Part shown: positions 3,056 to 39,589 of the stretch, one piece after another
How positions within the stretch are numbered: the stretch's first letter is position 1
How the letters are laid out: each line of letters starts with the position of its first letter
Source of the DNA: Promethearchaeati archaeon SRVP18_Atabeyarchaeia-1
Lineage (GTDB): Archaea; Asgardarchaeota; Atabeyarchaeia; Atabeyarchaeales; Atabeyarchaeaceae
Direction of reading: 5' to 3'
Length of the DNA stretch: 64,000 bases
Assembly: GCA_037308085.1 (NCBI GenBank)
Contig: CP147779.1
Location: 480,001-544,000 of the forward strand
Made by a program: the position numbers and the translations under genes
The notes under the pieces: model-generated
The model's input: only the letters and a program-made list of their open reading frames with translations
Told to the model about the DNA's origin: nothing
Databases searched by the model: none

Positions 3056-3190
3056 GGGCGGGTGATCTAGTTCGGTTATGATGCCACGCTCACACTAAGT
3101 CGCGATAGAAAGGAGTAAACCGTGGATGAATATACTATGAGTCGAGTTGTTCAACGAGTGTCGAGAGTTCAAATCTCTCCCCGCCCACCA
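3056..3190 (+). tRNA. tRNA-Val(CAC) with two introns (about 3094-3118 and 3127-3158)
   Basis: Acceptor GGGCGGG/CCCGCCC+ACCA; anticodon stem CCACG/CGTGG around CT-CAC-AC after splicing; T arm GAGAG-TTCAAAT-CTCTC; relaxed BHB motifs. Confidence 0.88.
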
Positions 3191-3236
3191 ACCCCACTTG
3201 ACTTCGACTAGATAATCTTGTTTGGAGGAAAATCGT

Positions 3237-3437
3237 ATGCCTAAAGAACTTCGCGAAGAAGAAATCAAGGATTTCGTCGAATTGTCAAAAGCGGCCGAGG
3301 AATGCCGGGTTAAGCGGATCGGTGATACAGTCAAGCTGAAGTTGAGGACTAGCCGATATCTGTACACACTGAAGCTGAAACCTGACAAGGCAGAAGAGAT
3401 TGTAAAGAACCTTGGTTGCCCAGTGATTGAAGGCTAG
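3237..3437 (+). CDS. rpl38e: Ribosomal protein eL38
   Basis: MPKEL...VKLKLRTSRYLYTLK motif. Confidence 0.9.
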   Translation: MPKELREEEIKDFVELSKAAEECRVKRIGDTVKLKLRTSRYLYTLKLKPDKAEEIVKNLGCPVIEG

Positions 3438-3486
3438 CTGTTTCCTGACAAATTCGCGTTTCGGCGTCTCTCCCATTTCTGCCTGT

Positions 3487-4386
3487 TTAGATAGAGAGTA
3501 TCATGAATACCACTATCGGAACCGCTCCTATCAAGCTAGTTATTGGGAGACCCGGCAAGAACTCCCTTTTTTTCAGGAGCTGCAGCGTCAAGATAGAACC
3601 TATGATAATACCTACTATTGAGAAAATGCAGGCAATCAAACCAAACTGCGTCTCAGCGAGGGAAATGAGCATAGAATAGATGCCAAGGTCTCCAAGACCG
3701 ATCTCCCAGTCGCTGGATACGTAGCTAAGACCAGGAATCACTTCCTGCCGATCCTTTGAGACTTTCACGATCTCCTTTATTGGACCACTCCTGACAGAGT
3801 ATATGTCGTAGATCGAGATCCCCATCACCATCAGAAGACCCGTCCAGAGTGGCAGAGTTGTACCAAGTAGAGTACCTATTCCGCCACCATACACCACTGC
3901 AGCCAGGTTTTTTGCTCCTTGGGAGACCCGCGTGCTTAGTATAATATAGACTAGTATTATGTTCAGAGCCAAACCCAGCGGAATCGCTATCATGAATGCG
4001 TTTTCACTCTGAAGATTGCCGACCGTGACCATCAGCGCACTTCCAATAATGATTGAGAATATTGTAGAACCCGCCAAGACGAAACCTGTTCCGATAAATG
4101 CCTTCAAAAGGAGTTGCCTTCGCTTCCTCAAAATAAAGAGAATAACGAATCCACCAATGAGAGGAAGCACCGAAAGGATTATCGCATTTATGCCGGCTGC
4201 AAAGATTCCGCCTTCCGATTCAGGCACAAACTCGATCGGAGCGAGAACAATGGCGCTTATGGTCAGGTAAGTAAAGATCGCTGAAAACACGACAGAAGCC
4301 ACAATAGGCTTCATAAACGGAACCGCTCTACCGGCTTTAGCATTCTGCCTATCGTCCTTCGACCGCGAATTACCCAAACCAATCAT
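3487..4386 (-). CDS. Presenilin-family intramembrane aspartyl protease
   Basis: Multi-TM; YD (SIYDIYSV), GLGD and LPGLP motifs. Confidence 0.88.
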   Translation of the reverse strand: MIGLGNSRSKDDRQNAKAGRAVPFMKPIVASVVFSAIFTYLTISAIVLAPIEFVPESEGGIFAAGINAIILSVLPLIGGFVILFILRKRRQLLLKAFIGTGFVLAGSTIFSIIIGSALMVTVGNLQSENAFMIAIPLGLALNIILVYIILSTRVSQGAKNLAAVVYGGGIGTLLGTTLPLWTGLLMVMGISIYDIYSVRSGPIKEIVKVSKDRQEVIPGLSYVSSDWEIGLGDLGIYSMLISLAETQFGLIACIFSIVGIIIGSILTLQLLKKREFLPGLPITSLIGAVPIVVFMILSI

Positions 4387-4474
4387 CTCATTGCCGATCG
4401 GTGATTACTGGCTTTACCTCTTGTTAATATAAGCCTGACCGGTATAATAATCATAGCAGGGGGTCTATTAGCGG

Positions 4475-4813
4475 GTGGTAAAGCATCTCGCAAGCAAGCT
4501 ACTGAGAGTACCTATTCTTGATGACGAGAGCCAGAGGATTGGCAGATTGAGTGACATCCTCGTCGAAACGCGCACAGGCAACTTGACGTATCTTGTCATC
4601 GATAAGGTTGACTCTCAGACCTTTCTTGAAATCGTGCAACAGCTGCCAACTGGGGAATCGGTCATACCCGTTTCCGTTGCGAAGCTTGGCGATGACTCAG
4701 TAATCGTAGACGCGAAGAAACTAAAGCTACTGTCTTTGAAGAAGAGCTTGAAGAAAAGGGCCTTTTTGGCGAAGAGTGCCGGCACCAGTCAAACTGGTGA
4801 AAGCCCGCACTAA
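4475..4813 (+). CDS. PRC-barrel domain protein
   Basis: IGRLSDILVETRTGNLTYLV pattern; IPVS..KLGDDSVIV. Confidence 0.75.
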   Translation: MVKHLASKLLRVPILDDESQRIGRLSDILVETRTGNLTYLVIDKVDSQTFLEIVQQLPTGESVIPVSVAKLGDDSVIVDAKKLKLLSLKKSLKKRAFLAKSAGTSQTGESPH

Positions 4814-4814
4814 G

Positions 4815-6074
4815 TCAGATATTAAAGGAATCTCCAATGCTTGGAGCAACTGCCTCGATTCCGAGTTCATCTTTTGCTCTTTCTGCGAGCGAGATGCAGG
4901 CCTCCTTTTCGCCATGTACGACGTACACTTTTGTCGATGAGTCCAATCTGCTCAAGATGCTCCAGAGTTCTGATTTTCCGCAATGGCTAGAGAAGTCGAA
5001 GAACTTGACTTTCGACTTTGCCACTCTCCTTTCACCGTTTTCGGCAGTATAGGTCCCACCATCCATAAGCGCTCTGCCGTTAGTTCCAGGTATCTGATAG
5101 CTAACCAAGAAGATCCCGTTTCTGGGGTCTTGGGAAAATGCGTTCAGATAACCGACTGCTGCCCCGCCATCAAGCATGCCTGCTGATGCGACTACGATCC
5201 CTGGATTTGAAAGCGCTCTCTGCTTGTCTTTCTTCCCACGAACCCAAACTGCCCTTTCTAGAGCTTTGTTGAGCAGAGCATGATCTTTGATGAAGCTCGG
5301 GTTATGCCGAATTATCTTGCTTGCAGCTCTCACCATGCCATCTATAGTTGTAGTATAGTTGATGCCATATCTCTCAAGTATGCAGAGAATCTCCTGTGAC
5401 CTAGCTACAGCAAACGCGGGGATCAGGACCTTTCCTCCCTCTCCCTCGACTATCTCCTTGACAGATTCGATGAACTGTTTCTCGGTGTCATTCCTGTTGG
5501 GATGATCCTGAAGTGCATACGTGCCCTCTATTATGATGGCATCAAGAGACGAGACATCAAAGTTTGCCCCGCCCAAGAGCCTAGTCTCAACGGTATTTAT
5601 GTCCCCAGTCACAAGGACTTTCTTGTCTTCAGCTTCAATAAGAGTTGATATGCTGCCAGGGATGTGACCTGCATCTAGAAAGGTCAGTAGGAAACTGTCG
5701 TTCAATCCGATCTCTTCGCCTATCCCCGTAGGGTGGCTCTTACCCATCATTCTGGAAAGCTCATGCTCCTCGAAGGGGAGCAGTTCTCCACTCAGGTTTA
5801 TCTCGTCAGTTAGCAGAAGCTCAGTGAGTTCGAGTGTCATCTGTGTTGAGTAAAGGTCAGCCTTGCCTGAGACATAAAGCAGTGGCAAACTGCCAGAATG
5901 GTCCAGATGGGAATGCGTAAGTATCACGGCCGACAAATCACGAGGAGAACATGGTAACGGGAAGTGAGGAGTGTCATCCATGTAGATCCCATAGTCAACT
6001 AGGGCAGAAACGTGATTTGACTTCAGAAGAACCGCGGATCCGCCTATTGTACGACATCCACCCAGGAAATGCAA
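4815..6074 (-). CDS. MBL-fold beta-CASP ribonuclease (aCPSF2-like)
   Basis: THSHLDHSG, AGHIPGS, TGD, EGTY, FSSH, VHGE motifs. Confidence 0.9.
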   Translation of the reverse strand: MHFLGGCRTIGGSAVLLKSNHVSALVDYGIYMDDTPHFPLPCSPRDLSAVILTHSHLDHSGSLPLLYVSGKADLYSTQMTLELTELLLTDEINLSGELLPFEEHELSRMMGKSHPTGIGEEIGLNDSFLLTFLDAGHIPGSISTLIEAEDKKVLVTGDINTVETRLLGGANFDVSSLDAIIIEGTYALQDHPNRNDTEKQFIESVKEIVEGEGGKVLIPAFAVARSQEILCILERYGINYTTTIDGMVRAASKIIRHNPSFIKDHALLNKALERAVWVRGKKDKQRALSNPGIVVASAGMLDGGAAVGYLNAFSQDPRNGIFLVSYQIPGTNGRALMDGGTYTAENGERRVAKSKVKFFDFSSHCGKSELWSILSRLDSSTKVYVVHGEKEACISLAERAKDELGIEAVAPSIGDSFNI

Positions 6075-6282
6075 TAACGTGATTCAGCAGACCCCCAAAG
6101 TTGAACAAGGTTGGATCATGCATCTAGTTTGAGTTCGATGCTACTTTGAAAAGCTTCCTAACCTAACTAACCGCAAACTTAAATAAACGTTTCCAAATGC
6201 TTCCTAGCGAGAAGAAAGCGAAATAAGCGATTCCAGAAGTATTTGGAGTGCAGGCATAGAAGTCGGCAACCTATTTGCTGCA

Positions 6283-7020
6283 TTGAGGTGTGTGGCGAGA
6301 GTGACAATCAGAATAGCTTTGTATGATGACAAAGAGGACGTGAAGAACTGCCACTTCTTAACCGGCTTCCACGGAGTAGGGCTGACCGGCTATATCACAG
6401 TCAACCATATTGTGAAGTCGCTACACGCACATCCTATTGGTTATGTAGAAACTCAACACCAGCCCGCTTTAGTTTCGCTGGCAGAAGAAAGGATATCTTT
6501 TCCGTTCGAGATTTTCAGACACGACGACATTGTGATACTCTTCCCCAGGGTGCAACCCAAGCGGTCTGAAGTCAGGGAATTCACACGCGAGATGGTCAAA
6601 TGGGTTACCGAGAATGAAATGAAGGATGCAGTATTAATCGGTGGGTTGGACAACAGATTCAAACAAGAGAATGCAACAATGAGATGTGTTCCCACAAGAC
6701 CTTCACTTGACAGAGCGAAGACTTTGAATATCCCATTGCTGGAGGAAGCTCTTTTCGTCACCGGACCGCTGGCGCTGATGCTAACGTATTTTGAGATGAA
6801 GACCTTCCCCGCTATTGCATTATTGCCATACTCAGAGAGAGGCCGACCGGATCCCAGAGCTGCGGCCTTGGCGGTCAAGGAGATTAACAGCCTATTCTCC
6901 CTGAACGTCGACGATCTCGAGTTAATCAACGATGCGAAGAGAATAGAGGATGAAGTGACCAAGATAATAAACGGGCAAAAAGAAAAGGCAGGCGACGATT
7001 CCCAGACAATGTACACTTAG
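6283..7020 (+). CDS. PAC2-family proteasome assembly chaperone
   Basis: TGFHGVGLTG, IGGLD, GPLALML, PDPRAAA; start uncertain. Confidence 0.85.
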   Translation: MRCVARVTIRIALYDDKEDVKNCHFLTGFHGVGLTGYITVNHIVKSLHAHPIGYVETQHQPALVSLAEERISFPFEIFRHDDIVILFPRVQPKRSEVREFTREMVKWVTENEMKDAVLIGGLDNRFKQENATMRCVPTRPSLDRAKTLNIPLLEEALFVTGPLALMLTYFEMKTFPAIALLPYSERGRPDPRAAALAVKEINSLFSLNVDDLELINDAKRIEDEVTKIINGQKEKAGDDSQTMYT

Positions 7021-7177
7021 AGTTCTGTCCCTGACCGATTCTGCTTTTATCGAGGCACTTTTCCGTCGTCTCAGATCATACAACCCCACAACTTCTGAAA
7101 CATCTGAAAACATTTATGAGACGAATGTTTCATTCAAACTGCTATCGTATTTTTCATCAAAAACGAGGTGATTAACA

Positions 7178-8468
7178 GTGGAAGAATACGCTGTCAAAGA
7201 CTTAAGCCTAGCACCTCAAGGACATAGCAAAATAGATTGGGCGGAATCTCACATGCCAGTTCTCATGATAATTCGTGAACGATTCGCAAAAGAGAAGCCA
7301 CTGGCTGGCAAGAGAGTATCAGCTTGTCTTCACGTAACCAAAGAGACGGCCGTGCTAGCAAGGACGCTCCGCGCGGGTGGAGCCAAGGTCGCGCTGTGCG
7401 CATCCAATCCTTTGTCGACGCAAGACGATGTTGCAGCCGCTTTGGCCAACGAGGGTTTCAACGTATATGCTTGGAGAGGCCAGAATACAGAGGAATACTA
7501 TGATTGCGTAAACAACGTGCTTAACTACGCCCCTAATATCACTCTGGACGACGGGGCTGACCTGATCACAAGCATTCACACGAAACGCCAAGAACTATTC
7601 AAAGGAGTGATAGGTGGATGCGAAGAAACTACTACTGGCGTAATCCGACTCAGGGCCATGGCAAAGCAGAAAGTCCTCAAATACCCAGTGATAGCTGTCA
7701 ATGATGCACAGACCAAATGGTTCTTTGACAACCGCTATGGAACTGGGCAAAGTAGCATCGACGGAATATTGCGGTCGACCTCGGTTCTACTTGCTGGAAC
7801 AAAAGCAGTTGTCGCCGGGTACGGTTGGTGCGGGAGAGGGATAGCGACTCGATTGAAAGGTATGGGATGCAGGGTGATTATCTCTGAGGTAAACCCCCTA
7901 AGAGCTCTTGAAGCAGTGATGGATGGGTTTGACGTAATGCCCATGTCTGATGCAGCAAGACAAGCAAGACTTTTCGTGACGTCCACTGGAGACAAGAAGG
8001 TGATAACAAGGGAGCATATAGACGCCATGCAGGATGGATCAATACTTGCTAATGCTGGGCACTTCAACGTCGAAATATGGGTTCCTGACCTTGAGAGTTT
8101 GTCTGTAAAGAAGAGAGAGATAAGGTCGAACGTCGAGGAATACACCCTAAAGGATGGACGACGAATATACCTATTGGCTGAAGGGAGACTCGTCAATCTG
8201 GCTGCGGCTGAGGGGCACCCCAGTGTTTGCTTCAGCAGTAACTAGCTGGGCAACTGGACAGGTCATGGATATGAGCTTCTCAGATCAAGCTCTCTCAGCT
8301 GAATACCTAGCTAAGGAAGGAAAAACACTGAAACCAGAGGTCTACCTTGTTCCGGCAAGAATAGACAATCTCGTCGCCGAATTGAAGTTGGAGTCGATGG
8401 GGATCAAGATAGACAAACTGACAGAGGAGCAGAAGGAGTACTCGCAAGGATGGACTGAGGGGACATAG
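7178..8468 (+). CDS. ahcY: S-adenosylhomocysteine hydrolase, two exons (7178-8225 and 8260-8468), 418 aa after splicing
   Basis: [47 protein letters not shown]|EVMDMSF; the frame break is explained exactly by a 34-nt BHB intron. Confidence 0.95.
8226..8259 (+). other. BHB-type mRNA intron in ahcY (34 nt)
   Basis: h ACC/GGT, central helix CCAG/CTGG, bulges TG^T and AC^A, inner stem TTGC/GCAA plus CAGC/GCTG; excision joins G+AG into a Glu codon. Confidence 0.9.
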
Positions 8469-8551
8469 TCTCCTCTCCCCCGTCTTTGTGGCACAGGATG
8501 GCGCTCAAGTAGATTTGCCCCGTTATCGCCAAAACACGGTGAGAAGTCAGT

Positions 8552-9199
8552 ATGGAAGAAAAAGACGGCCTCGGACGGGCACCCAACGCCAGCCCGACGA
8601 GAAGAGTCCATATAGCCGACATTTTTGCCACCGAGAATTCCGAACCGGCCCCTTCAAAGAATGAGCGGCTAGCCAACGTCAAGATCTATGGGATAGTAAT
8701 GGATAAGAGAGTTTTCCGCAGCGAAGGTAAGGTTGACTATGGAGTCATTTCAATCGATGACGGCAGCGGATTCTTGATCCAGATAAAAACCTGGAGTGGC
8801 GAGACATCAGCAGTTGAAAAGATGGCAGTGGGAGATATGATTGACGTTGTAGGAAAAGTAAAGAAAAAGAATGCGGATGTCTATGTTATTCCAAGTATAG
8901 TTCGCAAAATCGAAGACCCCAACTGGGAGACAGTAAGAGAACTGGAGATAATGAAGGATTCTCTGGTAGAGAGCAAGGCAAGACTAACAAGGAGTGCGCC
9001 GCCTACACCTCATTCCAAAAGCATCGAATCAGAAATACTTGAAATAATAGAGGGGGGTAGCAACAGCGTCGGCGTCGAATACAAAGAACTGATAAAGCGC
9101 ATCGAACACTCGAGTGAGGAAGAGATTAAAAAGACTCTGAAGGAACTACTTGATCAAGGAAAGATCTATGAGTCAAGGCCGAATAGGTATAGAAAATGA
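8552..9199 (+). CDS. OB-fold plus winged-helix protein, RPA32/RPA2-like ssDNA-binding subunit
   Basis: VKIYGIV...IDDGSG...GDMIDVVGKV OB fold; DPNWE; C-terminal LLDQGKIYE wHTH. Confidence 0.75.
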   Translation: MEEKDGLGRAPNASPTRRVHIADIFATENSEPAPSKNERLANVKIYGIVMDKRVFRSEGKVDYGVISIDDGSGFLIQIKTWSGETSAVEKMAVGDMIDVVGKVKKKNADVYVIPSIVRKIEDPNWETVRELEIMKDSLVESKARLTRSAPPTPHSKSIESEILEIIEGGSNSVGVEYKELIKRIEHSSEEEIKKTLKELLDQGKIYESRPNRYRK

Positions 9200-9227
9200 C
9201 GACTCGGAGCTGGAGGTAAGAAATCTT

Positions 9228-9641
9228 ATGGGCGAGTACGACTATGAGCATCTGCTTGACAGGGCAAGGTCTTCGGTCCCTGAAAAACTCTTTGCGAAGG
9301 ATAGGTTTGACGTTCCATTGGCGTCAATCTTTCCAGAAGGAAGCAGGACGTTCGTTCTGAACTTTAAGGAAATCTGCGATACATTAAATCGTGACCCAAA
9401 CCAGCTGATGAAGTTCCTTCTTAGGGAGCTGGCCACATCAGGACTCGTTGAGGGTAACAGAGCCGTTTTTCAAGGCAAATTCTCTGACTCGACTCTTAAT
9501 GATCTCATCAAGAGGTACACGAAGGACTATGTATTGTGCCCACTCTGTGGTCAGCCTGATACGACGCTGAAGAAGGAGGGGAGGGTAACCATTCTTGTGT
9601 GTGACGCGTGTGGGGCCAGAAACCCTGTGAGACCTACGTAG
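9228..9641 (+). CDS. eif2b: Translation initiation factor aIF-2 beta
   Basis: YEHLLDRA, LNRDP..KFLLRELAT, CPLC..PDT..CDACGA zinc ribbon. Confidence 0.95.
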   Translation: MGEYDYEHLLDRARSSVPEKLFAKDRFDVPLASIFPEGSRTFVLNFKEICDTLNRDPNQLMKFLLRELATSGLVEGNRAVFQGKFSDSTLNDLIKRYTKDYVLCPLCGQPDTTLKKEGRVTILVCDACGARNPVRPT

Positions 9642-9672
9642 TTGACCCCATAGGTACGAATGAGGGAAAACT

Positions 9673-9969
9673 ATGGAGATATACCTGAAGGAATTCCACT
9701 CAAAGGGAGATGTGGTCGTTGCGGCTTGCGACCCAGAACTCCTTGGAAAATGTTTCAAAGAAGGCAGACTAGTGTTAGACGTGAGAAAGGAGTTCTATGA
9801 AGGGTCCCTAGTAAGCGTTGAGGAGGCGCTAGCGGCAATAGAATCTTCAACGATAGCAAACATTGTCGGAGAGAAGATCGTATTCAACGCAATCAAAGCA
9901 GGTCTCATTTGCGAGGAGAGCGTGCTAACAATCTCAAAAGTTCCACACGCTCAGAGGATTGTACTCTGA
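9673..9969 (+). CDS. DUF424 family protein
   Basis: VAACDPELLGK, FYEG, NIVGE, VPHAQ; conserved neighbour of aIF-2 beta. Confidence 0.85.
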   Translation: MEIYLKEFHSKGDVVVAACDPELLGKCFKEGRLVLDVRKEFYEGSLVSVEEALAAIESSTIANIVGEKIVFNAIKAGLICEESVLTISKVPHAQRIVL

Positions 9970-10033
9970 TACGAGTATCCTTCAGTTGTGCCTCCACTTT
10001 TTCGTGTATGATGTCGCGACAGGTGAGCAAAGA

Positions 10034-10825
10034 ATGGCTAACCGAAAGCGGTTTTGCGTCGTCTGTGGTTCCGAAGAGACCCAGACCAATAGATTGTATA
10101 ATGGCCTCTGCGGGAGATGCTCAGCAATCGAGAAACCCAGCGAAATCATCAACACGACTCCAACAATCAGACTATGTAAGATATGCGGAAGTCTTGAAGA
10201 AAAGGGAAAGTGGATTGCTCCTAGCTCAGGGAAGCTGCAAGAAGATCTATCAACTCTATTGAGGAGAATGGCGACAAAGTTCGTCAGAGTTGAAAAAGAA
10301 GAGCGTGTCGAAGTATCAATTCCACAGATGCCGATTCCGATAGGCTCGAAAAGTGTACTCATACCTTTCTGCATTAGGACTAAGGGTGCCACCGGACAGC
10401 ACGAGCATCCGCAACGAGAGTCCATGGCAAAAGTGAGGCTAACGCCCTCGATATGCTCTAACTGTACCCTGATGAAGCAGAAGTACTACGAGGCAACGCT
10501 CCAAGTCAGAACGTCCGACAAAAAGATGCGCCCAGAGGAAAGGGAGAACCTGTTGGGCAGAATAGATGCGTGGGTAGAAGAAGGGAGAAGAAAGGATAAA
10601 CAAGCTTTTATATCAAAGTATGAAGATAAGCCTGAAGGATTCGACCTGTACTTGGGATCGCGTAGTCTAGCTTACTCGATTGCCTCGAAATTCAGAGCAA
10701 TGAAAGGAACAAGCATCAAGGAAACATTCAAGATAGGAAATGTAGATAAGTCCACGGGCAAACGGAAGAGTAAAGCAACAATCCTGATAAGACTCCCCCC
10801 GCAAATAGTCGATGGTCCAGCTTAA
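10034..10825 (+). CDS. nmd3: Nmd3 large-subunit export/biogenesis protein
   Basis: Four CxxC motifs; YYEATLQVR; GFDLYLGS. Confidence 0.88.
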   Translation: MANRKRFCVVCGSEETQTNRLYNGLCGRCSAIEKPSEIINTTPTIRLCKICGSLEEKGKWIAPSSGKLQEDLSTLLRRMATKFVRVEKEERVEVSIPQMPIPIGSKSVLIPFCIRTKGATGQHEHPQRESMAKVRLTPSICSNCTLMKQKYYEATLQVRTSDKKMRPEERENLLGRIDAWVEEGRRKDKQAFISKYEDKPEGFDLYLGSRSLAYSIASKFRAMKGTSIKETFKIGNVDKSTGKRKSKATILIRLPPQIVDGPA

Positions 10826-10930
10826 GAATGTGGGAAATCCACACATTATCAGAAGAATTAAAAACCTTGACCAACCATGTCTAGCCAGACAACCCTCACG
10901 CCAGACATGGCATGATCATGTTCAGGAGCG

Positions 10931-11257
10931 ATGGCATTGCCAAAGAAAACTAGAGGAGTTCAAGAACCCAGCTACGAAAGTGAAATCAAGCAAACCCGGA
11001 TTCCCGGCAAGGGCGAAGTTGTTGGCGTGATTGTTCAACAACTTGGGTTTGATAGAGTAATGGTCAAGTGCGCCGACGGGTTTTCCCGCCTCTGCCGAAT
11101 CCCAGGCAGGATGAAGAAACGGGTATGGCTTAGAGATGGAGACATCGTGTTGGTGGCTCCATGGGATTTCCAGTTTGAGAAACGGGCTGACGTTGTATGG
11201 CGATACACTAGGTCCCAAGCCGAATGGCTCAAGAATAGGGGCTACCTGAAGCTCTGA
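10931..11257 (+). CDS. eif1a: Translation initiation factor aIF-1A
   Basis: CADGFSRLCRIPGRMKKRVWLRDGDIVLVAPWDFQ. Confidence 0.96.
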   Translation: MALPKKTRGVQEPSYESEIKQTRIPGKGEVVGVIVQQLGFDRVMVKCADGFSRLCRIPGRMKKRVWLRDGDIVLVAPWDFQFEKRADVVWRYTRSQAEWLKNRGYLKL

Positions 11258-11460
11258 GTCTGCTCCTGCATTTTCCTACCTTCCCTCTTATCACACTATT
11301 GCTCCTCTTTTCAGCAACTTCTTTTCATCTCTTCGCCTTGCCAGACGCGTCTGCAGGCGGAGACGTAGAATATTTAAGCGTCCGACTGGATCGCTTTCGT
11401 TGCACGTCCTCCCACCCATGAGGAGAGTGGGCATTTCCGCAGCCCAGAGGCGAATTACCC

Positions 11461-12246: not shown

Positions 12247-12279
12247 TTCCCCCTACTTCGAAGGAATCGGTGTCTTAGT

Positions 12280-12858: not shown

Positions 12859-12979
12859 CGACGTGCTACTCTTTATACTTGGCTGAAAATCCTTGACGAT
12901 GGCTTTCCGAAAACCTTAATATTGCTCGCCGTTTCTACATATTTTGCAAAATCCGCGTCTGGGATTTCCCAGTGCACGC

Positions 12980-13126
12980 GCCGGGGTAGCTCAGCCAGGT
13001 AGAGCAGCGGGCTGTTAACCCGTCGGTCACACATGTCTAGTCGACGTGGACCACAGGTTCGAATGCTTGGAGGACATTGTCTGTCAACCATATCGTCCAA
13101 AGCCGAATTTCCTGTCCCCGGCGCCA
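12980..13126 (+). tRNA. tRNA-Asn(GTT) with two T-arm introns (13031-13054, 13064-13109)
   Basis: GCCGGGG/CCCCGGC+GCCA; GCGGG-CTGTTAA-CCCGT; BHB helices GGTC/GACC and TTCG/CGAA. Confidence 0.93.
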
Positions 13127-13193: not shown

Positions 13194-13318
13194 GCTCCGG
13201 TAGTCTAGCCCGGTCATCCCTCTGGGTCCGAAAGGATAGAGGCCCTTCGAGCCTCCGACGCGGGAAGCCTTGCTCAAACAAGAAAGGCTCGCGAATCCGA
13301 ATCCCGCCCGGAGCACCA
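13194..13318 (+). tRNA. tRNA-Glu(TTC) with two introns (13217-13232, 13265-13295); atypical C33 and C55
   Basis: GCTCCGG/CCGGAGC+ACCA; GAGGC-CCTTCGA-GCCTC; BHB helix CGCG/CGCG at the T stem. Confidence 0.85.
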
Positions 13319-14920: not shown

Positions 14921-15397
14921 ATGAATGACAAGTTCCACATGGTTGGCACTAGAATTCCAGAGTTCAGCCTCCCGAATTCCAGAGGAGAGAACGTCAACAT
15001 AAGGGATTTTGAAGGCAAGAAGAACGTCGTCATAATCCTGCTAAGGGGCATAAGCTGACCATACTGTAGAGGACACCTTGCCGGACTTGCAAGTGGCTAC
15101 GAAGGGTTTGAGCAACTGAACGCAACGCTGTATCCTATTACCGCGGACAAATTAGAGAATGCTGAGAAAATGGAGGAAAAATACGCCAAGGGAAGATATC
15201 CGGTGTTCTATGATCAGAGTAAGAAGGTTGCAGACATGTTGCACCAAGAGGTCATCATTCACAAGTTCGGGAGGATGCCGGCTCTACTGGTTGTAGACAA
15301 GAAGGGAATGGTTCGATACGCGCATTACGGCGAATCAATGAGGGACATTCCCAAGAACGAGGAGATATTCGGGGTGCTCAAGGAATTCGTGGATTAG
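14921..15397 (+). CDS. Peroxiredoxin-like (AhpC/TSA) probable selenoprotein with UxxC motif
   Basis: GGAGG RBS; MNDKFHMVGTRIPEFSLPNSRGENV...LLRGIS(TGA 15056-15058)PYCR... stays in frame to PALLVVDKKGMVRYAH. Confidence 0.85.
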
Positions 15398-27699: not shown

Positions 27700-27804
27700 G
27701 GGCCCGTGGCCTAGTCAGGATAGGGCGCCAGCCTCCTAACTCATTTCTCCCCGCAAACCGGAGAGAGCTGGTGGTCGAGGGTTCAATTCCCTCCGGGCCC
27801 GCCA
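27700..27804 (+). tRNA. tRNA-Arg(CCT) with canonical 37/38 intron (27739-27765)
   Basis: GGGCCCG/CGGGCCC+GCCA; CCAGC/GCTGG stem; BHB helix CTCC/GGAG. Confidence 0.93.
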
Positions 27805-28404: not shown

Positions 28405-28574
28405 CGCCCTGGGCGGGACTACCGGGGATCATCGCGTGTTGTTCTTGGTTTTTGGGTGATTCCACTCGAACCCGCGTCCTAGGTTTTGTCCCTCTGCGTT
28501 GGGTGTGACAGACCTAGATGTTAACCGCCTCGTGGCCGTCTCACGGTGTGTGAGGAGGCTTGCACCACCAGGGC
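28405..28574 (-). tRNA. tRNA-Asp(GTC) with three introns (D arm, 38/39, T loop)
   Basis: GCCCTGG/CCAGGGC; TAGGT-CTGTCAC-ACCTA after splicing (BHB helix TGTC/GACA); GCGGG-TTCGAGT-CCCGC. Confidence 0.88.
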
Positions 28575-30927: not shown

Positions 30928-31606
30928 TCTTGATCACCTAACATGAGTATATCTGCCCTCAAGCAGATAAGGCTATGGAGTCAGCTATCCACCGATGAAG
31001 CTTGTGGACCTGCAACTCAGGATATTATTTTATTGCCTATCCAGAATACCGTGCGCCTAAGTCAATCTCGTGTTGCCCTTCTCAGCTTCAGACAGATGAA
31101 AATCTCACATATATTGCCTGCGACCGTAGTTTCGTGAAGTTGAACTAGGGAAAAGACTAGAACCACAAGAATCTGTCCTTTTAGACCCACATACTTCTTT
31201 TTTGGCGACTAATCCCCGGGCAGAGTCGGTGATACAGCCTTCTCTCAAAAATCGGACAGCATTCAAAGGCAGTTTTTTATAAGTGGTTCAAGTCTCACGG
31301 GCTGGTCGCAGGCATTCTTCCGTTTGTGATATCTGGCGCCAGATAATTCGTTGCGTGCGAACACGTTAAAATGTTCACGTGGCAAACCAGTGTCCTGATC
31401 GGACGAGTGGTGTAAGGTCGAAATGGGCGCAAAAAACGAGAAAGGAAGCGAAAACGTTGCCCCTCCCGCGCCTGCCATCAAGAAGGGGAGCGAAACGGTG
31501 AGAAAGAAGAAGCAAATAAAGCGGACTCTGGAAAAGATAAAGGAACCCTACCCTAGACACGAGAAAAAAATGAAGTATTCTAGTAATTGCTTCATTTACC
31601 GGGCGC

Positions 31607-31885
31607 CTATTTCTTCATTTCCTTTTGCTTCAGCTTCTTATCCCGGTTCGCGACGTATGCGTCTGCCGCCTTCTTATTAAGCTTACGAAGCTCCGTGGCT
31701 ATAAGGTCAGACAGTTTTGCCGTAGTGACGTCTACCATGTTAGCTACTTTCTTGGCGATATCTTTGGCTACCTGTGCTGCCTGTTTGGCCGTCGCGCCGG
31801 CTTTCTCAACTGCAGCCACAATCTTGGATTCTGAGAATTCCTCTATTCTTCCATCTCTCTTCTTCACTTTCACCATGTCAACCAT
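31607..31885 (-). CDS. Stand-alone ATP-cone domain protein
   Basis: VKKRDGRIEEFSESKI...VTTAKLSDLIATEL. Confidence 0.85.
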   Translation of the reverse strand: MVDMVKVKKRDGRIEEFSESKIVAAVEKAGATAKQAAQVAKDIAKKVANMVDVTTAKLSDLIATELRKLNKKAADAYVANRDKKLKQKEMKK

Positions 31886-32110
31886 ATCCTTGCTTGACTG
31901 CTCTTGTAAGAGAAAGGGTTGCATTAAATACCTTGTGCCAACAGAGAACCTCTCACTAAAGAACTGAAGAGGTCGCCATTACTACAGGCATGTCTGCCCC
32001 CGCATGGAACAGAATCGAACCCACTACGCCGTCGATCTTCCGCATGACCCTCCCCCAAAACGCTAGGCCAAGCAAGAAGAATATCGGCAAGAGGACACTT
32101 CCAGCCAAGA

Positions 32111-32389
32111 ATGAATGAAGAGTTTGGGCGCCCGTACACTCTGCTTGGAGTCAAGTTTGGCCCAGGACTAATCATCGCCTCCTTACCATTCGCATTCGCA
32201 CACGTTTTGAATCCTTTCAATCCATTTGCCGGTCGCTTCGATCTAGCCCCGTGGTGGGGTCTATTCACCTTCTTTGTCGGACTATTCTTCGGACTCATCA
32301 GGGAAAAAACAGGTAGCATACTGGCATCAGGAATAGCGCACCGGCTCTCAGATGCAGTGGGACAAGGATCTATGCTCGCCTTCTCCTAG
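32111..32389 (+). pseudogene. C-terminal fragment of a CPBP (CAAX/Abi) intramembrane protease
   Basis: FAFAH, FGLIREKTGS..A..IAH; N-terminal EE motif missing. Confidence 0.7.
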
Positions 32390-32543
32390 CAACACAAAGT
32401 TCCTTATTGCTCCATAGGGCCACATTCTTCAATTTGACCACCGGTACGTAGTCTTAGCGCTCATACTGGTGATCGCATGTATTTCAATGCTAAGGGATAA
32501 CAGAGGTGCCCAAGACCGAGGTAGGTTGCAGCTGAGTTCCTGT

Positions 32544-33491
32544 TCAGGTCATGACGCCTATAGCGAAGAATGTGAAAATGAAGGCGTCTTGGACGAAGTG
32601 GATTGTCCATGCCCAGAAGAACCCCTTGGTCTCCAGCAGGCTCTTGCCTAGGAACCATCCCAGAAAGGTCGAAAGAATGACACCTATTATGCTATTTGGT
32701 ACACCATAGAAGTGACCGAGCCCAAAGTAAATGGCGGTGATTAAGAGTGCCTGGTGCTTGCCAAGGACTTTCCAGAGTTCCGAGAGGGGCGCAGCCCTTA
32801 ATGTGAATTCCTCGTTAAATGCGTTAATCGCAGCGATCAGCACGGCAACCGGAATCAAAGGTAGTCCATTTACGAAGTCATTCAACGTAGGCCTTGTTGC
32901 CATAAACAGGTAAGCGAGCGTAACTACGCTAAAGACTACCGCAAAAATAGATCCTATCTTGACCCACGTATCTGTTTCCTTGCTGTTAATTAGCTTGGAC
33001 GGCTCAACAGGCGCATTGATTTTGCCCTTGATGAGGAAGAAGTCTGGGCGTCGGCGTCCCAACAGCACCAGAAACACAATTATGATCAATGCGGGCGTGA
33101 GTCTTAGAAGATGAATTCCGACTGACAAGGGCGTCTGATTCTGCAACACTGGGCCCAGGGAACTATCGCGAACGACAAGGAGCAAACCCCAATTCCAGCC
33201 ACCTCCGTACCCGCACAAGAATATTATCAGTAGGATCACGAGAAATGGTCTAAGCGGCCGCAACGATGAGGAAGCAAAGGCAAGAGCAAGCAGTACTATC
33301 AGCCCGACAGTTGGCACCCACGGCCACCAATCCATAACCCCGGGCGCAACTGAGTTCCAGAAAACTACTGCAAGAGTACTCACAAGCAATGTCGCTACCC
33401 AAGCGACAACAAGTGAGCCCCGATTTGGAGTTATATCTGCTTTCTCGACTTGCTTCTTCATCATATTCTCCACTATGAAGGGGTCCTCCAT
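32544..33491 (-). CDS. CPBP family intramembrane metalloprotease
   Basis: NEEFTLR, FGLGH, WTIHFVQD; multi-TM. Confidence 0.88.
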   Translation of the reverse strand: MEDPFIVENMMKKQVEKADITPNRGSLVVAWVATLLVSTLAVVFWNSVAPGVMDWWPWVPTVGLIVLLALAFASSSLRPLRPFLVILLIIFLCGYGGGWNWGLLLVVRDSSLGPVLQNQTPLSVGIHLLRLTPALIIIVFLVLLGRRRPDFFLIKGKINAPVEPSKLINSKETDTWVKIGSIFAVVFSVVTLAYLFMATRPTLNDFVNGLPLIPVAVLIAAINAFNEEFTLRAAPLSELWKVLGKHQALLITAIYFGLGHFYGVPNSIIGVILSTFLGWFLGKSLLETKGFFWAWTIHFVQDAFIFTFFAIGVMT

Positions 33492-34072
33492 GGATCTTGC
33501 TTGGGTGTCTTTATCTAGAGACTATTTAAAACTTGTCACAAGAATCAAGGCATCTAATGGCTTACTGGGTCTAGGCGTCCATCAGTCTCAATTGAGTCGG
33601 TTGTAGTGGCTTCTTCGGCGCGGGATCAAAAAGGGATCAGGTGTTTACCCGAAGTAACTAGCGAACTAATCATTCTTGGTGAGCTAGTCGCAGAACCAAG
33701 TCTGAGGGTCTTGAGATCGATCCTAAAGCAATGGTGCTGTGCGGGTACATAAGAGTTCGTGAGGACATTGGCTCTATCGGTAAGAGGGTGTTAGAGAAAG
33801 AGAGGTCTGGTAGGACACGAGTTCGGGGACACAGAAAAGACTAGAAGCACAAGAATCTATCCTTACAGACTTACATTCTTCTTTTTTTGGTTTGATATCG
33901 TCTCCCTAGCAGATCGTGCAGTGAGCATGTGTGAAGAATGGAGTAGGAGCATAGTGTAACGGTAACTGCGGCGACCCACACTCAACAGCGTCCATTAATG
34001 CTAAATAGCGCCTTGTACTCAGTGCTTGCACTGCAACTATCCAGAAGAACGAAGGAGGAGAAGGGAAGAGGC

Positions 34073-34390
34073 ATGTGCGCTAATCTGATAGTGATAGCTT
34101 GGGTACCGCAAAACAAGGCAAGCAAGATAGCTGAAGTGTTCGCTAAGAATCCAACTATCAAGGGAGTCAAGAGAGTGGGCAAATGTCCCTATGCAACTCC
34201 AACCGATCGCGGCGTAAGGATCATAGACATATTCGAAGTTGAAGACACAAAAGTTGCCGAGGCGATCAGAGAGATAACCAAATGGGAACAGCCATACGCG
34301 AATGCGGTTCCGGAGATGTCCTACTCGCTTGAGCCTCTATTGACGCCAGAAGAGGCTTTCGTGGCAATAGGGATGCAGCCTCCAAAGTAG
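34073..34390 (+). CDS. Hypothetical protein (about 105 aa)
   Basis: Clean ORF with upstream TATA-like and purine-rich RBS; ferredoxin-like pattern. Confidence 0.6.
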   Translation: MCANLIVIAWVPQNKASKIAEVFAKNPTIKGVKRVGKCPYATPTDRGVRIIDIFEVEDTKVAEAIREITKWEQPYANAVPEMSYSLEPLLTPEEAFVAIGMQPPK

Positions 34391-34767
34391 ACTTCGATCC
34401 CTGTAAACAGAGAACCACCCAATGAAAGACTATCTAGAACCACCCTTCTTTTTCTACTCTCTATTCTCGTTAGCCCTTATTGCACGGGCGTGTGAGACAC
34501 ATAGGATTTCGGAGTTCATGAAGAAGCTCGCTTTGCAGGTTGCGAACGCGTCGGAGAATGAGATGCCTAAACAGGAGAAAAGACTAGAACCACGAATATG
34601 AGTGGTTAGAGACCTACAACCTTTTTTTTGACGGGCGAAGAGACACTGGCGGGTTATATCATAATATAGGATAGAACACTATGTCACTTGACTCATCGTT
34701 TGAAGCCATTATTGTGATCTCCCAATATTCTTGGCAGTGCAGGCTGATGGAAAAGGGGATTGTCCGC

Positions 34768-35064
34768 ATGAAGGCGAAGCTTAAGGACATAATATCCATT
34801 GTCAAGGCGCTTGAAGGACAAATAAGGAAAGAGTACAAGGCAGAGGTCATTGGAATTTTCGGTTCCTATGCACGGGGGGAACAGCAGGCGAGTAGTGATG
34901 TGGACATGCTCGTGAAGTTTCTGGAAGGAGCAACTCTGTTTGACTTTGTTGGTCTTGGAGATTTTCTTGAGGATAAACTCAACGTGAAGGTAGACGTTGT
35001 CTCGGAGAGAGCAATAAGGGTGGAGTTGCGGGACCAGATACTGAAAGAGGTCGTGACAGTTTGA
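34768..35064 (+). CDS. Minimal nucleotidyltransferase antitoxin (MNT)
   Basis: FGSYARG..SDVD, KVDVV. Confidence 0.92.
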   Translation: MKAKLKDIISIVKALEGQIRKEYKAEVIGIFGSYARGEQQASSDVDMLVKFLEGATLFDFVGLGDFLEDKLNVKVDVVSERAIRVELRDQILKEVVTV

Positions 35065-35399
35065 AGAGGGACATAAAGCTCTTTGTCAAAGACATAATCT
35101 CTGCTATGGACTCAATTGAGAAATTTGTCAGCGGTATGACTATTGACGAGATTCAAAAGGATGACAAGACCTCTAGTGCTGTGATTAGGAAGTTTGAAAT
35201 CATCGGAGAGGCGACAAAACATATTCCAGACGCGTTGAGAATTAAACACTCCGAGATTCCCTGGAGCAGAATGTCAGGAATGAGAGACAGACTGGTTCAT
35301 GCTTATCTTGGGATAGACTATAGGCTTGTGTGGGATGCCATTAAGATCGATATACCGAATCTCAAGCCCAAATTCGAAAGGATCTTGGTCGATCTTTAG
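35061..35399 (+). CDS. HEPN (DUF86) ribonuclease toxin
   Basis: EIIGEA, IPW..M.GMRDRLVHAY (RX4H); overlaps the MNT stop. Confidence 0.92.
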   Translation: MKRDIKLFVKDIISAMDSIEKFVSGMTIDEIQKDDKTSSAVIRKFEIIGEATKHIPDALRIKHSEIPWSRMSGMRDRLVHAYLGIDYRLVWDAIKIDIPNLKPKFERILVDL

Positions 35400-35689
35400 G
35401 ATGGACAAGGGTTAGGATTAGACCCTTAGCACCAAGAATTTGCTTCGAGCCCAAGCTTTCTGAAGAAGCCCACATTGTAGGTTGCAAACGCATTGAGGAA
35501 TGAAATGCCTAAACAGGAGAAAAGACTAGAACCACAAACATGTGTGGTTAGAGACCTACACATCCTTTTTCTGCGACTACGAATAATCTTCTATTTCGAA
35601 ACCCGCCCTGTAATTGAGACGGGCGATCATATACAAGTATTCTGGCCAGGAAGTATTATATGCCAAGGCGCACGCCTACACAACAGTTC

Positions 35690-36197
35690 CAGTCTATATA
35701 GGTTTACATAGGTGTAGGTCATACAAATTTAGGTATAACTGAAAGACTCTACGGTCTCAGGAGCCACAGGTACAAGGAGGTTGTCGAAAGCGCTAAGAAC
35801 CTATTCACTCAGCCATAACCAGGGCGAAGCACTTAGCGGTTTAATGGCAGCCTACAACACCACCCTCAATCCCATACTGCAGTGCGTCTGGCAGACGACA
35901 GAGTGGAAGCGGCACCAGATCAAAGGCGAGAAGCAGTACAGGCTCTACCCCATCTTCAGAAAGGATAACGCGTTCAGGCGGGAGCTGAGGAATAGGCACC
36001 TAGCGAGATGGAGCTACGCTGCTCACTGGGTTGACTCCGCCATGAAGACAGCCTTCAGCATCATGGCATCGTGGAAAAGGAATTACGACAAAGGTGAGAG
36101 AAGGAGAACATGTCCACGTGCGGGGAGGCTCTTTTTGCGGGTCAAGCAGACACTCCTCAAACTTGAGGGGGACACGCTCAGGATCACCGTGAAGTGA
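35690..36197 (+). mobile_element. Internally deleted IS607-like remnant: tnpA C-terminal tail plus truncated tnpB
   Basis: 35744-35818 encodes RLYGLRSHRYK (IS607 serine recombinase tail); overlapping ORF 35781-36197 has HWVDSA.KTA.SI..SW..NY and lacks RuvC. Confidence 0.75.
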
Positions 36198-36254
36198 AAA
36201 AGAAGCCCTAGCGCTTGTAACCTAGTAGAACGTGACAAGGGAGACAGTTGAGAA

Positions 36255-36926
36255 TTGGCGAAATCAAGTTCTAATATTGGATTGCTTAGAAAAGCGTCAT
36301 TATGGATCTGCGTAGCTGGCATCTGGCAACTTCTTCCAGTCATCGGGTTCATGATCCTAGTGTTCGGAATGCTCTACACGATATCAACTATGATACCGAT
36401 CCCTATAGAGGCACTCCACTCGATCTCTAACTCGTACTTGCTAGCATCCGCTATACTGTGGATCACGATACCGATTACCATCATTCTTGGCTACTACTCG
36501 TACAAAGTTGGCGTCCTTTATGGTTTCGGCTCACTCAAATTGACAGGGATCTGTAACATTATCATGACACTAGCCTACCCTGTTCTCTTCATTGGGTTGA
36601 GCCAATTCGTTCAAATGTTATCCTCGATCTTACCGTCGCCACCAGTTGACTATCCTCAGTTAATGCAAGGCTGGATAGGCTTACTTCTGATCGGAGGAGT
36701 GTTCGTTTGCTTCTTTGGCCTCATTTCGCTCATAGCGTTCATATTTGGTTCTTCCGCTATGAAGAAGAATTCTGGCATTGGAAAGTTCGGGAAGGCAATG
36801 TGGTTATCAATCGTGGGGCTGCTAATATGGTTCCTGATCCCCATTGCAGTAGCCGAATTTGGGTCCGGACTTAGAAAGCTATCGAGACCTAATACAGCAA
36901 GACCAACTGGTGCGGCGAAACAGTAA
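36255..36926 (+). CDS. Multi-pass membrane protein
   Basis: About 5 hydrophobic segments. Confidence 0.65.
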   Translation: MAKSSSNIGLLRKASLWICVAGIWQLLPVIGFMILVFGMLYTISTMIPIPIEALHSISNSYLLASAILWITIPITIILGYYSYKVGVLYGFGSLKLTGICNIIMTLAYPVLFIGLSQFVQMLSSILPSPPVDYPQLMQGWIGLLLIGGVFVCFFGLISLIAFIFGSSAMKKNSGIGKFGKAMWLSIVGLLIWFLIPIAVAEFGSGLRKLSRPNTARPTGAAKQ

Positions 36927-37333
36927 ACTCCCAGATCCGCAACAAAACGACTGATTTGTCCTCCCAAGCTCAGAGTCGAGCCCTTGACGACTAGAATCTC
37001 TCTCTAGCCTAGGTTTTCAGAAACACCCGCTTTCTGGATTGAGATGCGCGGACAGGAGAAAAGACTAGAACCACAAACATGTGTAGTCCTCTGAAATCTA
37101 AGTAAAACCCTTTTTTTCTGGCTGCACACGCGTCTCGTCGTTTGGTAGCTAGCTGACAAAGTGAAGCTAGTTCCTACGGAGAAGATCAGGAGACTTGGCG
37201 CGCGTTGTGACCGAAGATCACCCGCTGCTAGGAAGTATCATATATCGTAGCGCACGCGATATCAATGGTTATATATTTGGCTCATATGCAAGTACCGTAA
37301 TCATCCCGGTTTTGAAGGAAGAGGAGATTCAGG

Positions 37334-37900
37334 ATGTCAAGAACTGAGTCCGAAAATGGTTCAGAAGCCTGGAAGAAATTCCTGGGAAAACACTGGAGCA
37401 TAGTTGCCATGTTTGTAGTGGCAGGTCTTCTTGCATTTGTAGGCGCAGTTTGCGTCTTCTTATGGTTCGTTGGGAATGCTCAATCGACAGGCATCGTACC
37501 TGCGGCTTTGGGTCTTTGGACAATGGGAAGCGTAGTGACTTTCATTTTGTATTTGGTCTTCTGGGAGCTTCTTCTTATTGGGATCCCTGTGGCCTTAGTC
37601 GCAGTGGCTGGTTGGCAATGGTGGAAAAGGCTACCTGATAAGGAGAAGAGGGAATATCACCCCTTTGGCAAACGCTCACGTGCAAGACGCGGTGGAAGTG
37701 GAATACCCCTATTGTTCTTCGTTGCGTTCTGCATCAAGGTCTTTATCGATGGAAACTGGAACGTTGCCATTGCTACTTGGACCTTGAACTATGTTGTAAA
37801 TTCGATTATCGCAATACTGATCTGGACGGCAATTATTTTCGGAATTCCTATCGCTATAGGGCTCGTCTGGTGGATACACCATCAAGTTAAGAAGCCCTAA
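37334..37900 (+). CDS. Membrane protein
   Basis: About 4 TM segments, GAGGAG RBS. Confidence 0.7.
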   Translation: MSRTESENGSEAWKKFLGKHWSIVAMFVVAGLLAFVGAVCVFLWFVGNAQSTGIVPAALGLWTMGSVVTFILYLVFWELLLIGIPVALVAVAGWQWWKRLPDKEKREYHPFGKRSRARRGGSGIPLLFFVAFCIKVFIDGNWNVAIATWTLNYVVNSIIAILIWTAIIFGIPIAIGLVWWIHHQVKKP

Positions 37901-38149
37901 CTTCTTTCTTGCTTGCATTGGTCAGATTTTCAGAATCGTTGAAATTCAGAAGGCGGAACTACTGATGAGTGAACGCACTATACTGAGAAAGTTGGGAGCC
38001 GACACCCACATAAATGAGACATCGACATGCAGAGATCAAGGAAAATCCCGGATTCAGCAAGACAGAGTGGGCTCTGTAGCGTATAAGAAATCTGAAACAT
38101 GAGGGTTTCCTAGCGCTGGGATTCAATACACTAGAGTTGTGGTTGAGCT

Positions 38150-39082
38150 ATGAAAAGAATAAGGTTTGGGGTTCAAGCCTTGCAAGGCATGCCTGACTAC
38201 GCTAGCCTCAAGAAGGTCGTGCTAGAGTGTGAGCGCCTCAAATTTGATTCAGTGTGGGTATATGATCATCTTCACTTTAGCTATGGGCCTACACTTGAAT
38301 GCTGGACGGTTCTAGGGGCGCTGGCAGAAGCGACCAAGAGCATAAGAATTGGCCCACTGGTGACGTGCAACGCATACCGCTATCCCTCTATTCTGGCTAA
38401 GGTGGCGGCGACAGTGGATATGATCTCTAATGGGCGCCTGAACTTTGGAATAGGCGCAGGTTGGCTTAAGGAAGAAGCGATAGCATACGGCATACCATTT
38501 CCGAGAGGCCGCGAACGCGTTGAAATGCTGGACGAAGCACTGACAATAATAAGACAGCTATGGACCAAAGATAAAGCTGAATTCAAAGGCAAATACTACT
38601 CACTTAGTAGTGCAGTCTGCCTTCCCAAACCAACTCAGACACCTCATCCACCCATCCTTGTTGGCGGAGGCACAGGTACAAAAATGCTCAGAGTCATCGC
38701 TAAGCACGCTGACGCTTGGGACATGGGATTCGAAACCTCAGAAGAGATCAAAGGGGACCTTGCCAAGTTAAAGGAGGCTTGCAGTGAGGTAGGTAGAGAT
38801 CCGAATACAATTGAGAACACATACCAAAGCAGAGTTATAATAGCCGATGAGGATGAAGATGCATTTGCACGGGCGGAGAAGTGGCGAGAAGAGCGACATG
38901 GAAAAAAGGACGATCCGGACTGGAAAACCGCCATAGTTGGTTCCCCGAAGAAATGCATCGACCAGTTGAAATCCTTGGTAGATGTTGGCATAACCAGTTT
39001 CAATCTGCTCTTTCCAGACGTTTTGAAGCTTGAACCTCTACGCCTCTTCTCCGGCGAAGTGATTCCCGATTTCCAAGAATAG
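38150..39082 (+). CDS. LLM-class F420-dependent oxidoreductase
   Basis: WVYDH, LAKVAATVDMISNGRL.FGIGAGW, PPILVGGG. Confidence 0.92.
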   Translation: MKRIRFGVQALQGMPDYASLKKVVLECERLKFDSVWVYDHLHFSYGPTLECWTVLGALAEATKSIRIGPLVTCNAYRYPSILAKVAATVDMISNGRLNFGIGAGWLKEEAIAYGIPFPRGRERVEMLDEALTIIRQLWTKDKAEFKGKYYSLSSAVCLPKPTQTPHPPILVGGGTGTKMLRVIAKHADAWDMGFETSEEIKGDLAKLKEACSEVGRDPNTIENTYQSRVIIADEDEDAFARAEKWREERHGKKDDPDWKTAIVGSPKKCIDQLKSLVDVGITSFNLLFPDVLKLEPLRLFSGEVIPDFQE

Positions 39083-39372
39083 TCATTTGCTCTCTCTGCA
39101 GGCTATTTCTCGGATATGCTTACTAGGTTCTGGCTGGCGTACAGAGTAGATCAGTGCGCAATTCGGTTTCTGGTGGCTTTGGATTGGGCTCCAATAGCAG
39201 CTACGCGACGCAAAGAAAACATCATCCAAGGAGCGCTGAACATTAGTCGTACATTCTTTATCGCTGCCGACCTCTAGACGCGAATCGTCCAGGAATGAGA
39301 CGCCCAAAGAGTAGAAAAGAATATAAGGAATTCACTTTATCCGTAAGCTAATGCGGGTGGAAAGACCTGCTT

Positions 39373-39589
39373 GGGCCCGTAGCTCAGTCAGGTAGAAGGA
39401 AGAAATGAGTACCTACCTATAGCGCCGGACTCTTAGAGGAACTGTTTCCCCTTAGAGGGTGAGGCTTTTAGACGCCAGCTGATTGCCTAGAGATTAAGCC
39501 ATCGAAGAGCAGCGTAAGGAAACCCGGTGGCCGGGGGTTCGATAGCGAGTTGTTTGATGGACAAGCCGAGATTCCCCTCGGGCCCGCCA
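39373..39589 (+). tRNA. tRNA-Lys(TTT) with four introns (39396-39420, 39429-39463, 39471-39521, 39544-39572)
   Basis: Four BHB motifs (AGGT/ACCT, CGCC/GGTG, CTTT/AAGG, TTCG/CGAG); mature arm CCGGG-CTTTTAA-CCCGG; GGGCCCG/CGGGCCC+GCCA. Confidence 0.9.

Follow-up and report, generated by a model that had tools for sequence, protein, structure and literature searches.

A stretch of 64,000 nt in the complete 2,808,651-bp contig of Candidatus Atabeyarchaeum deiterrae 'Atabeyarchaeia-1', which belongs to the Asgard archaea rather than to the Thermoproteales, very probably carries six functional, colinear tRNA genes that are interrupted by 14 short introns of the endonuclease-processed type (genome 480001-544000; hereafter the window, to which all coordinates refer unless the genome is named). 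A preliminary description of this DNA had placed six such genes between positions 3056 and 39589, with two introns each in Val(CAC), Asn(GTT) and Glu(TTC), one in Arg(CCT), three in Asp(GTC) and four in Lys(TTT). Each of these counts was borne out, as were the span and the six identities. The phenomenon is already known for this genome, with five of the six genes and 11 of the 14 introns standing in a published table. Introns were reported in 92-95% of tRNA genes, often at non-canonical positions, with over half of the genes having several (Valentin-Alvarado et al., 2024, Nat Commun, PMC11291895), and the Atabeyarchaeia and Freyarchaeia are the setting of multi-intron tRNA genes with up to 4-5 introns per gene (PMC11291895; 10.64898/2026.10.13.758758). 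The view that such a density is known mainly from Thermoproteales is therefore out of date, as it has been published for this Asgard genome (PMC11291895) and further analysed in a 2026 bioRxiv preprint (10.64898/2026.10.13.758758). The six genes are the following:

3056-3190, plus strand: tRNA-Val(CAC), CCA encoded, two introns; row 11 of the published table, there flagged 'possible pseudo'.
12980-13126, plus strand: tRNA-Asn(GTT), CCA encoded, two introns.
13194-13318, plus strand: tRNA-Glu(TTC), CCA encoded, two introns; unusual C33 and C55.
27700-27804, plus strand: tRNA-Arg(CCT), CCA encoded, one intron.
28405-28574 (genome 508405-508574), minus strand: tRNA-Asp(GTC), no encoded CCA, three introns.
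39373-39589, plus strand: tRNA-Lys(TTT), CCA encoded, four introns.

Once their introns are removed, the genes give products of 73-75 nt with 20-21 of 21 stem pairs, which ARAGORN calls as Val(cac), Asn(gtt), Glu(ttc), Arg(cct), Asp(gtc) and Lys(ttt). The exons are colinear within 102-214 nt in all six cases, with no split loci and no permuted order, and a 3' CCA is encoded in five of the six genes, Asp being the exception. In their unspliced form these genes largely escape detection. ARAGORN with default settings returned no tRNAs from the unspliced 64-kb window, and its -i option returned 19 tRNAs genome-wide, several of them miscalled. Rfam, run at both gathering and E-value thresholds, placed only Arg(CCT) above threshold in the window (27700-27801, with a 29-nt insert), with Asn at 12980 just below it, and 13 tRNAs above threshold in the whole genome. 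A scan for a 7-bp acceptor stem followed by NCCA recovered the five plus-strand genes (Val, Asn, Glu, Arg, and Lys), but NCCA-anchored scans missed Asp because it lacks CCA and lies on the minus strand. This gene was detected neither by ARAGORN (default, unspliced) nor by Rfam, and no hit came from scanning for an uninterrupted Asp anticodon arm. A scan of the window for a T-arm plus acceptor stem missed Asn, Glu, Asp and Lys alike.

The introns were mapped through the bulge-helix-bulge (BHB) motif that is expected at their junctions. Under the rule used here, exon positions x-5..x-2 pair with intron positions n-5..n-2 and the cut falls after the second base of each 3-nt bulge. Central pairs are given below out of four, and h and h' denote the flanking helices:

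3094-3118, plus strand: Val intron 1, 25 nt, at 36/37 (same product as 37/38); canonical, central helix 4/4, outer helix out of register; published as 3095-3119.
3127-3158, plus strand: Val intron 2, 32 nt, variable loop 44/45; central helix 3/4, h 2, h' 5.
13031-13054, plus strand: Asn intron 1, 24 nt, T-stem 50/51; canonical hBHBh'; coordinates as published.
13064-13109, plus strand: Asn intron 2, 46 nt, T-loop 59/60; canonical hBHBh'; coordinates as published.
13217-13232, plus strand: Glu intron 1, 16 nt, D-loop; central helix 3/4, h 2, h' 3; boundary within 3 nt either way.
13265-13295, plus strand: Glu intron 2, 31 nt, 53/54; canonical HBh' (4/4, h' 6); coordinates as published.
27739-27765, plus strand: Arg intron, 27 nt, 37/38; canonical, 4/4, h 7; coordinates as published.
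28531-28561, minus strand: Asp intron 1, 31 nt, D-stem/D-loop, 13/14 to 16/17; central helix 4/4, no flanking helices.
28485-28504, minus strand: Asp intron 2, 20 nt, 38/39; canonical, 4/4, h' 2.
28419-28464, minus strand: Asp intron 3, 46 nt, T-loop 59/60; central helix 3/4, h 5, h' 2.
39396-39420, plus strand: Lys intron 1, 25 nt, D-stem 22/23; canonical BHB; coordinates as published.
39429-39463, plus strand: Lys intron 2, 35 nt, anticodon stem 30/31; canonical BHB; coordinates as published.
39471-39521, plus strand: Lys intron 3, 51 nt, 37/38; canonical; coordinates as published.
39544-39572, plus strand: Lys intron 4, 29 nt, T-loop 59/60; canonical hBHBh'; replaces the published 39543-39564.

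As had been described, the introns are mostly non-canonical in position, with only two or three of the 14 at the canonical 37/38, and mismatched central helices are present, namely in three introns (Val-2, Glu-1, and Asp-3) with one mismatch each. Ten of the 14 junctions are canonical, compared with 0.6% of same-length windows moved within the same genes and 0.4% of random window positions; three combine one central mismatch with flanking helices and one has the central helix only. The BHB rule recovers eight of the nine boundaries that tRNAscan published for these genes, the exception being Lys intron 4. An exhaustive cloverleaf solver was also applied, which takes all cloverleaf-compatible intron placements and ranks them by BHB score; its scope leaves out class-II tRNAs, acceptor-stem introns and two introns within one T or D arm. 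It recovered the chosen intron sets for Val, Arg and Lys, ranked (14,44) second after (15,46) for Asp, and offered D-loop alternatives within 3 nt for Glu, while the two T-arm introns of Asn lie beyond its reach. Choosing boundaries by local optimisation of the cloverleaf score alone gave wrong or ambiguous results and was abandoned. Self-splicing group I or II introns were also rejected, as the inserts measure only 16-51 nt (n = 14) and match no Rfam intron family. A search confined to class-I tRNAs with uninterrupted acceptor stems revealed no seventh gene in the window. One further candidate (35186-35463) was the sole relaxed-filter pass among 3237 solutions and was rejected, having a weak acceptor stem and only 3/4 pairs in all four central helices; other scan candidates gave no BHB-supported solution.

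Orthologues of all six genes were examined in three-way alignments with a congener and with Atabeyarchaeia-2, which belongs to another genus ('Candidatus Atabeyarchaeum deiterrae isolate SRVP18_Atabeyarchaeia-2', CP147780.1; 68% identity in HisRS). Exon identity is 97% to the congener and 96% to Atabeyarchaeia-2, whereas the introns are 67% and 58% identical, respectively. Thirteen of the 14 introns occupy the same positions in Atabeyarchaeia-2, and the only tRNA intron that differs between the genera is that of Asp at 38/39, as an exact 20-nt presence (this genome and the congener) or absence (Atabeyarchaeia-2). For 12 of the 13 shared introns, three or four of the four central pairs are kept at exactly homologous boundaries in both relatives; the remaining one, Asp intron 3, has only 2/4 in Atabeyarchaeia-2. 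Helix changes between species preserve pairing (GAGT to GAGC, GACC to GGCT, ACCT to GCCT) and intron lengths vary. Additionally, the h' helix of Glu intron 1 covaries from CCC/GGG to CTC/GAG, and the mismatch in the central helix of Val intron 2 is a G.A that is kept in all three species. No intronless copy of any of the six genes was found elsewhere in the genome.

It should be noted that several observations weigh against reading these loci as functional genes with excised introns. Some boundaries were picked among equivalents by the BHB rule, so that the test for enrichment of canonical motifs is not fully independent. Four junctions are relaxed, three of them by a central mismatch (Val-2, Glu-1, and Asp-3) and Asp-1 by its lack of flanking helices, and Glu-1 and Asp-1 can be placed only to within 3 nt. 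Minimum free energy (MFE) folds of whole precursors form the central BHB helix in only four of the 14 introns. Finally, tRNA-Glu(TTC) departs from Glu(CTC) of the same genome, which has the usual U33 and U55: its residue 33 is C in all three species (loop CCTTCGA), and its residue 55 is C (TCCGAAT) in this genome and in Atabeyarchaeia-2.

Some of the non-canonical inserts (Val-2, Glu-1, and Asp-1) might accordingly not be excised at all but be kept as expansion segments of the mature tRNA. Their motifs are relaxed only, with 3/4 central pairs or no flanking helix, they are not called by tRNAscan-SE, the MFE folds lack their central helices, and small hairpins with covariation lie inside Val-2 and Glu-1. 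We nonetheless consider retention quite improbable, as the BHB register is kept at exactly homologous boundaries in three species while the sequences of these inserts drift, and as excision yields a 5-nt variable loop and D-loops that match the format of the Glu(CTC) D-loop in this genome. A 31-nt insert in the D-loop region would also disrupt the contacts of G18/G19 with the T-loop, which counts against an expansion segment. Moreover, D-arm inserts of such a kind are about 6-fold enriched for canonical BHB motifs (10.64898/2026.10.13.758758). It is most improbable that one or more of the genes are pseudogenes. The suspicion attaches to Val(CAC), which has a low tRNAscan score (58.4) and was flagged 'possible pseudo' (PMC11291895), and to Asp(GTC), which is unlisted and was missed by ARAGORN, Rfam and the published annotation. 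However, identity to the orthologues is 93-96% over the Val exons and 86-99% over the Asp exons, compared with 30-85% for the introns of both, each spliced product forms 20 of 21 stem pairs, and each gene is the sole one found for its anticodon. The low Val score can be attributed to the second intron having been left unremoved. Functional tRNA genes with excised introns remain the reading that we adopt.

The preliminary description held that introns of this density require a broad-specificity endonuclease, and judging from its genes the organism probably encodes an enzyme of this type. PF01974 occurs twice in the genome, in two EndA paralogues. The first, of 209 aa, aligns with EndA alpha, the catalytic subunit, of Aeropyrum pernix (3P1Z_B, E 5e-46) and keeps the Tyr-His-Lys triad. 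Its loop RKPKTFDF is aligned to the Crenarchaea-specific loop of A. pernix; in this alignment the segment SVRKPKTFDFTCP faces A. pernix DVEKPRGADFEGP, and a Lys in it may correspond to K44, the conserved Lys of the N-terminal loop insert that confers broad specificity. In the second paralogue, of 241 aa, the catalytic His is replaced by Thr. The two proteins appear to fit the (alpha-beta)2 type of EndA with an L1 loop that has been described for Asgard archaea (PMC5829648). RtcB is encoded as well (genome 1025457-1026764). From these genes and motifs we infer a course of cleavage, ligation and splicing order in which each precursor would be transcribed whole and a BHB or relaxed BHB would then form at each exon-intron junction pair, that is, a 4-bp helix, bounded by two 3-nt bulges, in which exon bases just before the 5' cut pair with the last part of the intron. 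An (alpha-beta)2-type endonuclease, with a crenarchaeal-type specificity loop on its alpha subunit, would cut both bulges, after which the exons would be joined by RtcB. Several of the BHB helices use strands of cloverleaf stems or of a neighboring intron's motif, and removal is therefore probably stepwise, with refolding between cuts.

Against the published record our additions are minor. The tRNA coordinates match to the base those listed under 'SRVP_Atabeyarchaeota_1_curated.FINAL', where Val, Asn, Glu, Arg and Lys are rows 11-15 (Supplementary Data 4, PMC11291895). What is new is tRNA-Asp(GTC), a corrected Lys intron 4 and the mapping of the second introns of Val and Glu. In that table tRNA-Asp(GTC) is listed for neither Atabeyarchaeia genome, the sole Asp GTC row being from Freyarchaeia. 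The published Lys intron 4 (22 nt) leaves an 81-nt product, whereas the 29-nt intron given above yields a 7-nt T-loop and a canonical motif; Val and Glu each have a second intron that lacks coordinates in the table (PMC11291895). Despite its flag in print, Val(CAC) looks functional from its conserved exons and from the stem pairing that it reaches once intron 2 is removed. The preprint, a motif-free census, counts 2.2 inserts per gene with up to five in one gene, and reports that tRNAscan-SE misses 30% of inserts, mostly in the D arm (10.64898/2026.10.13.758758). A T-arm-seeded genome-wide scan also pointed to loci outside the published list of 40 that resemble tRNA genes, their acceptor stems being GC-rich and their sequences broken by several BHB introns (genome coordinates):

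447829-448039, plus strand: unlisted tRNA candidate, solves as Ile(GAT).
36840-37083, plus strand: unlisted tRNA candidate from the T-arm-seeded scan.
464249-464421, minus strand: unlisted tRNA candidate, solves as His(GTG)-like with discriminator C; adjoins Ala(TGC).
637152-637349, minus strand: unlisted tRNA candidate from the T-arm-seeded scan.
1599741-1599895, minus strand: unlisted tRNA candidate from the T-arm-seeded scan.

The origin of these introns is a separate question, and it involves one further intron of the window that lies in a protein-coding gene, that of S-adenosylhomocysteine hydrolase (ahcY):

8226-8259 (gene 7178-8468), plus strand: ahcY BHB intron, 34 nt; canonical, 4/4, h 3, h' 6.

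Removing this intron restores the reading frame and the motif GHPS|EVMDMSF. Other Asgard ahcY genes are split at several positions. The preliminary description had proposed that introns are actively spreading in the lineage and that this is the likely source of the ahcY intron, i.e., that tRNA introns multiply by copying or transposition and the mRNA intron is an offshoot. There are points that favor such a view: both the Asp 38/39 and the ahcY introns are present in Atabeyarchaeia-1 and its congener and exactly absent from Atabeyarchaeia-2, the Asp 38/39 intron opens with a repeat of the adjacent exon (ACCYA), a hint of local duplication, and many gains have been reconstructed on terminal branches (10.64898/2026.10.13.758758). 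We find active spread improbable, however, and the comparisons do not sustain the proposal. All the other 13 tRNA introns are common to both genera, no intron resembles another (best similarity z = 3.8 among 91 pairs), and no second copy of any of the 14 was found in the whole genome. No sequence families run across the genes; the ahcY intron is unlike all the tRNA introns (z <= 2.0) and has no match elsewhere in the genome either. In another Asgard family the same ahcY site holds a 31-nt BHB intron (L116, 87-117), which suggests that the ahcY intron is old or recurrent and not a by-product of the six tRNA genes. Cross-gene families make up 1.5% of Asgard introns, as opposed to 28% in Thermoproteales, and the preprint also concludes against recent spread by copying for Asgard archaea in general (10.64898/2026.10.13.758758). 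For the Asp 38/39 intron alone, a doubtful but conceivable alternative is a recent gain by local duplication-insertion, as may be suggested by its first five bases (ACCCA here, ACCTA in the congener), which directly repeat the ACCTA at positions 39-43 of the adjacent exon strand.

A close parallel to these genes is found in the multi-intron tRNA genes of Thermoproteales, whose introns are likewise short, have BHB or relaxed-BHB motifs and lie in the D arm, anticodon stem, variable region and T arm (Sugahara 2008; Fujishima 2010). Processing there is by an (alpha-beta)2 EndA with a specificity loop, as the encoded genes suggest for the present organism. The two cases differ in phylum, in the intron families that run across genes there and are lacking here (10.64898/2026.10.13.758758), and in density per gene, which is higher in this window at 2.3 introns. 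The split and permuted tRNA genes of Nanoarchaeum, Caldivirga and Thermofilum are similarly disrupted and BHB-dependent, however, the six genes described here are contiguous and colinear and need neither trans-splicing nor permutation. For the ahcY intron the nearest counterpart is the BHB intron that the cbf5 pre-mRNA of Crenarchaeota reportedly contains. The ahcY insert likewise interrupts a protein-coding gene and has a canonical BHB motif; presumably it is the same EndA that cuts it out and RtcB that ligates the ends. The gene and the phylum are different.

Some other features of the window are worth recording. An element of 55-100 nt with the core GAAAAGACTAGAACC occurs in six plus-strand copies (30508, 31150, 33834, 34577, 35519, and 37058), with a variable stretch after each copy and a T-rich stretch after most, and has no Rfam match; it is possibly a family of small RNAs or transposon guides. 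A redoxin/AhpC-like open reading frame contains an in-frame TGA at 15056-15058, at the first Cys of its CxxC motif (GIS-U-PYC), and is a candidate selenoprotein, consistent with the selenocysteine use reported for this genome. The rpoB gene (39932-44884, plus strand) is unsplit, encodes 1650 aa and contains an intein.

For annotation, the practical value of these results is that the only aspartate tRNA gene, along with several other tRNAs, is missing from the published list, that one published intron boundary is wrong and that a possible-pseudogene flag sits on a gene that looks functional. On this genome the standard tRNA finders are very nearly a complete failure, and inferences on codon usage, completeness and translation for such Asgard genomes require intron-tolerant searches. 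Heavily interrupted tRNA genes in the prokaryotes most closely related to eukaryotes are relevant to how tRNA splicing originated and how introns persist, a point already made in print for this genome. If the Asp 38/39 intron did arise by local duplication, BHB introns would originate in situ from flanking sequence and not by transposition, and mRNA introns such as that of ahcY could come about in this way too, with EndA and RtcB again as the machinery. This would offer a concrete handle on how archaeal BHB introns arrive.

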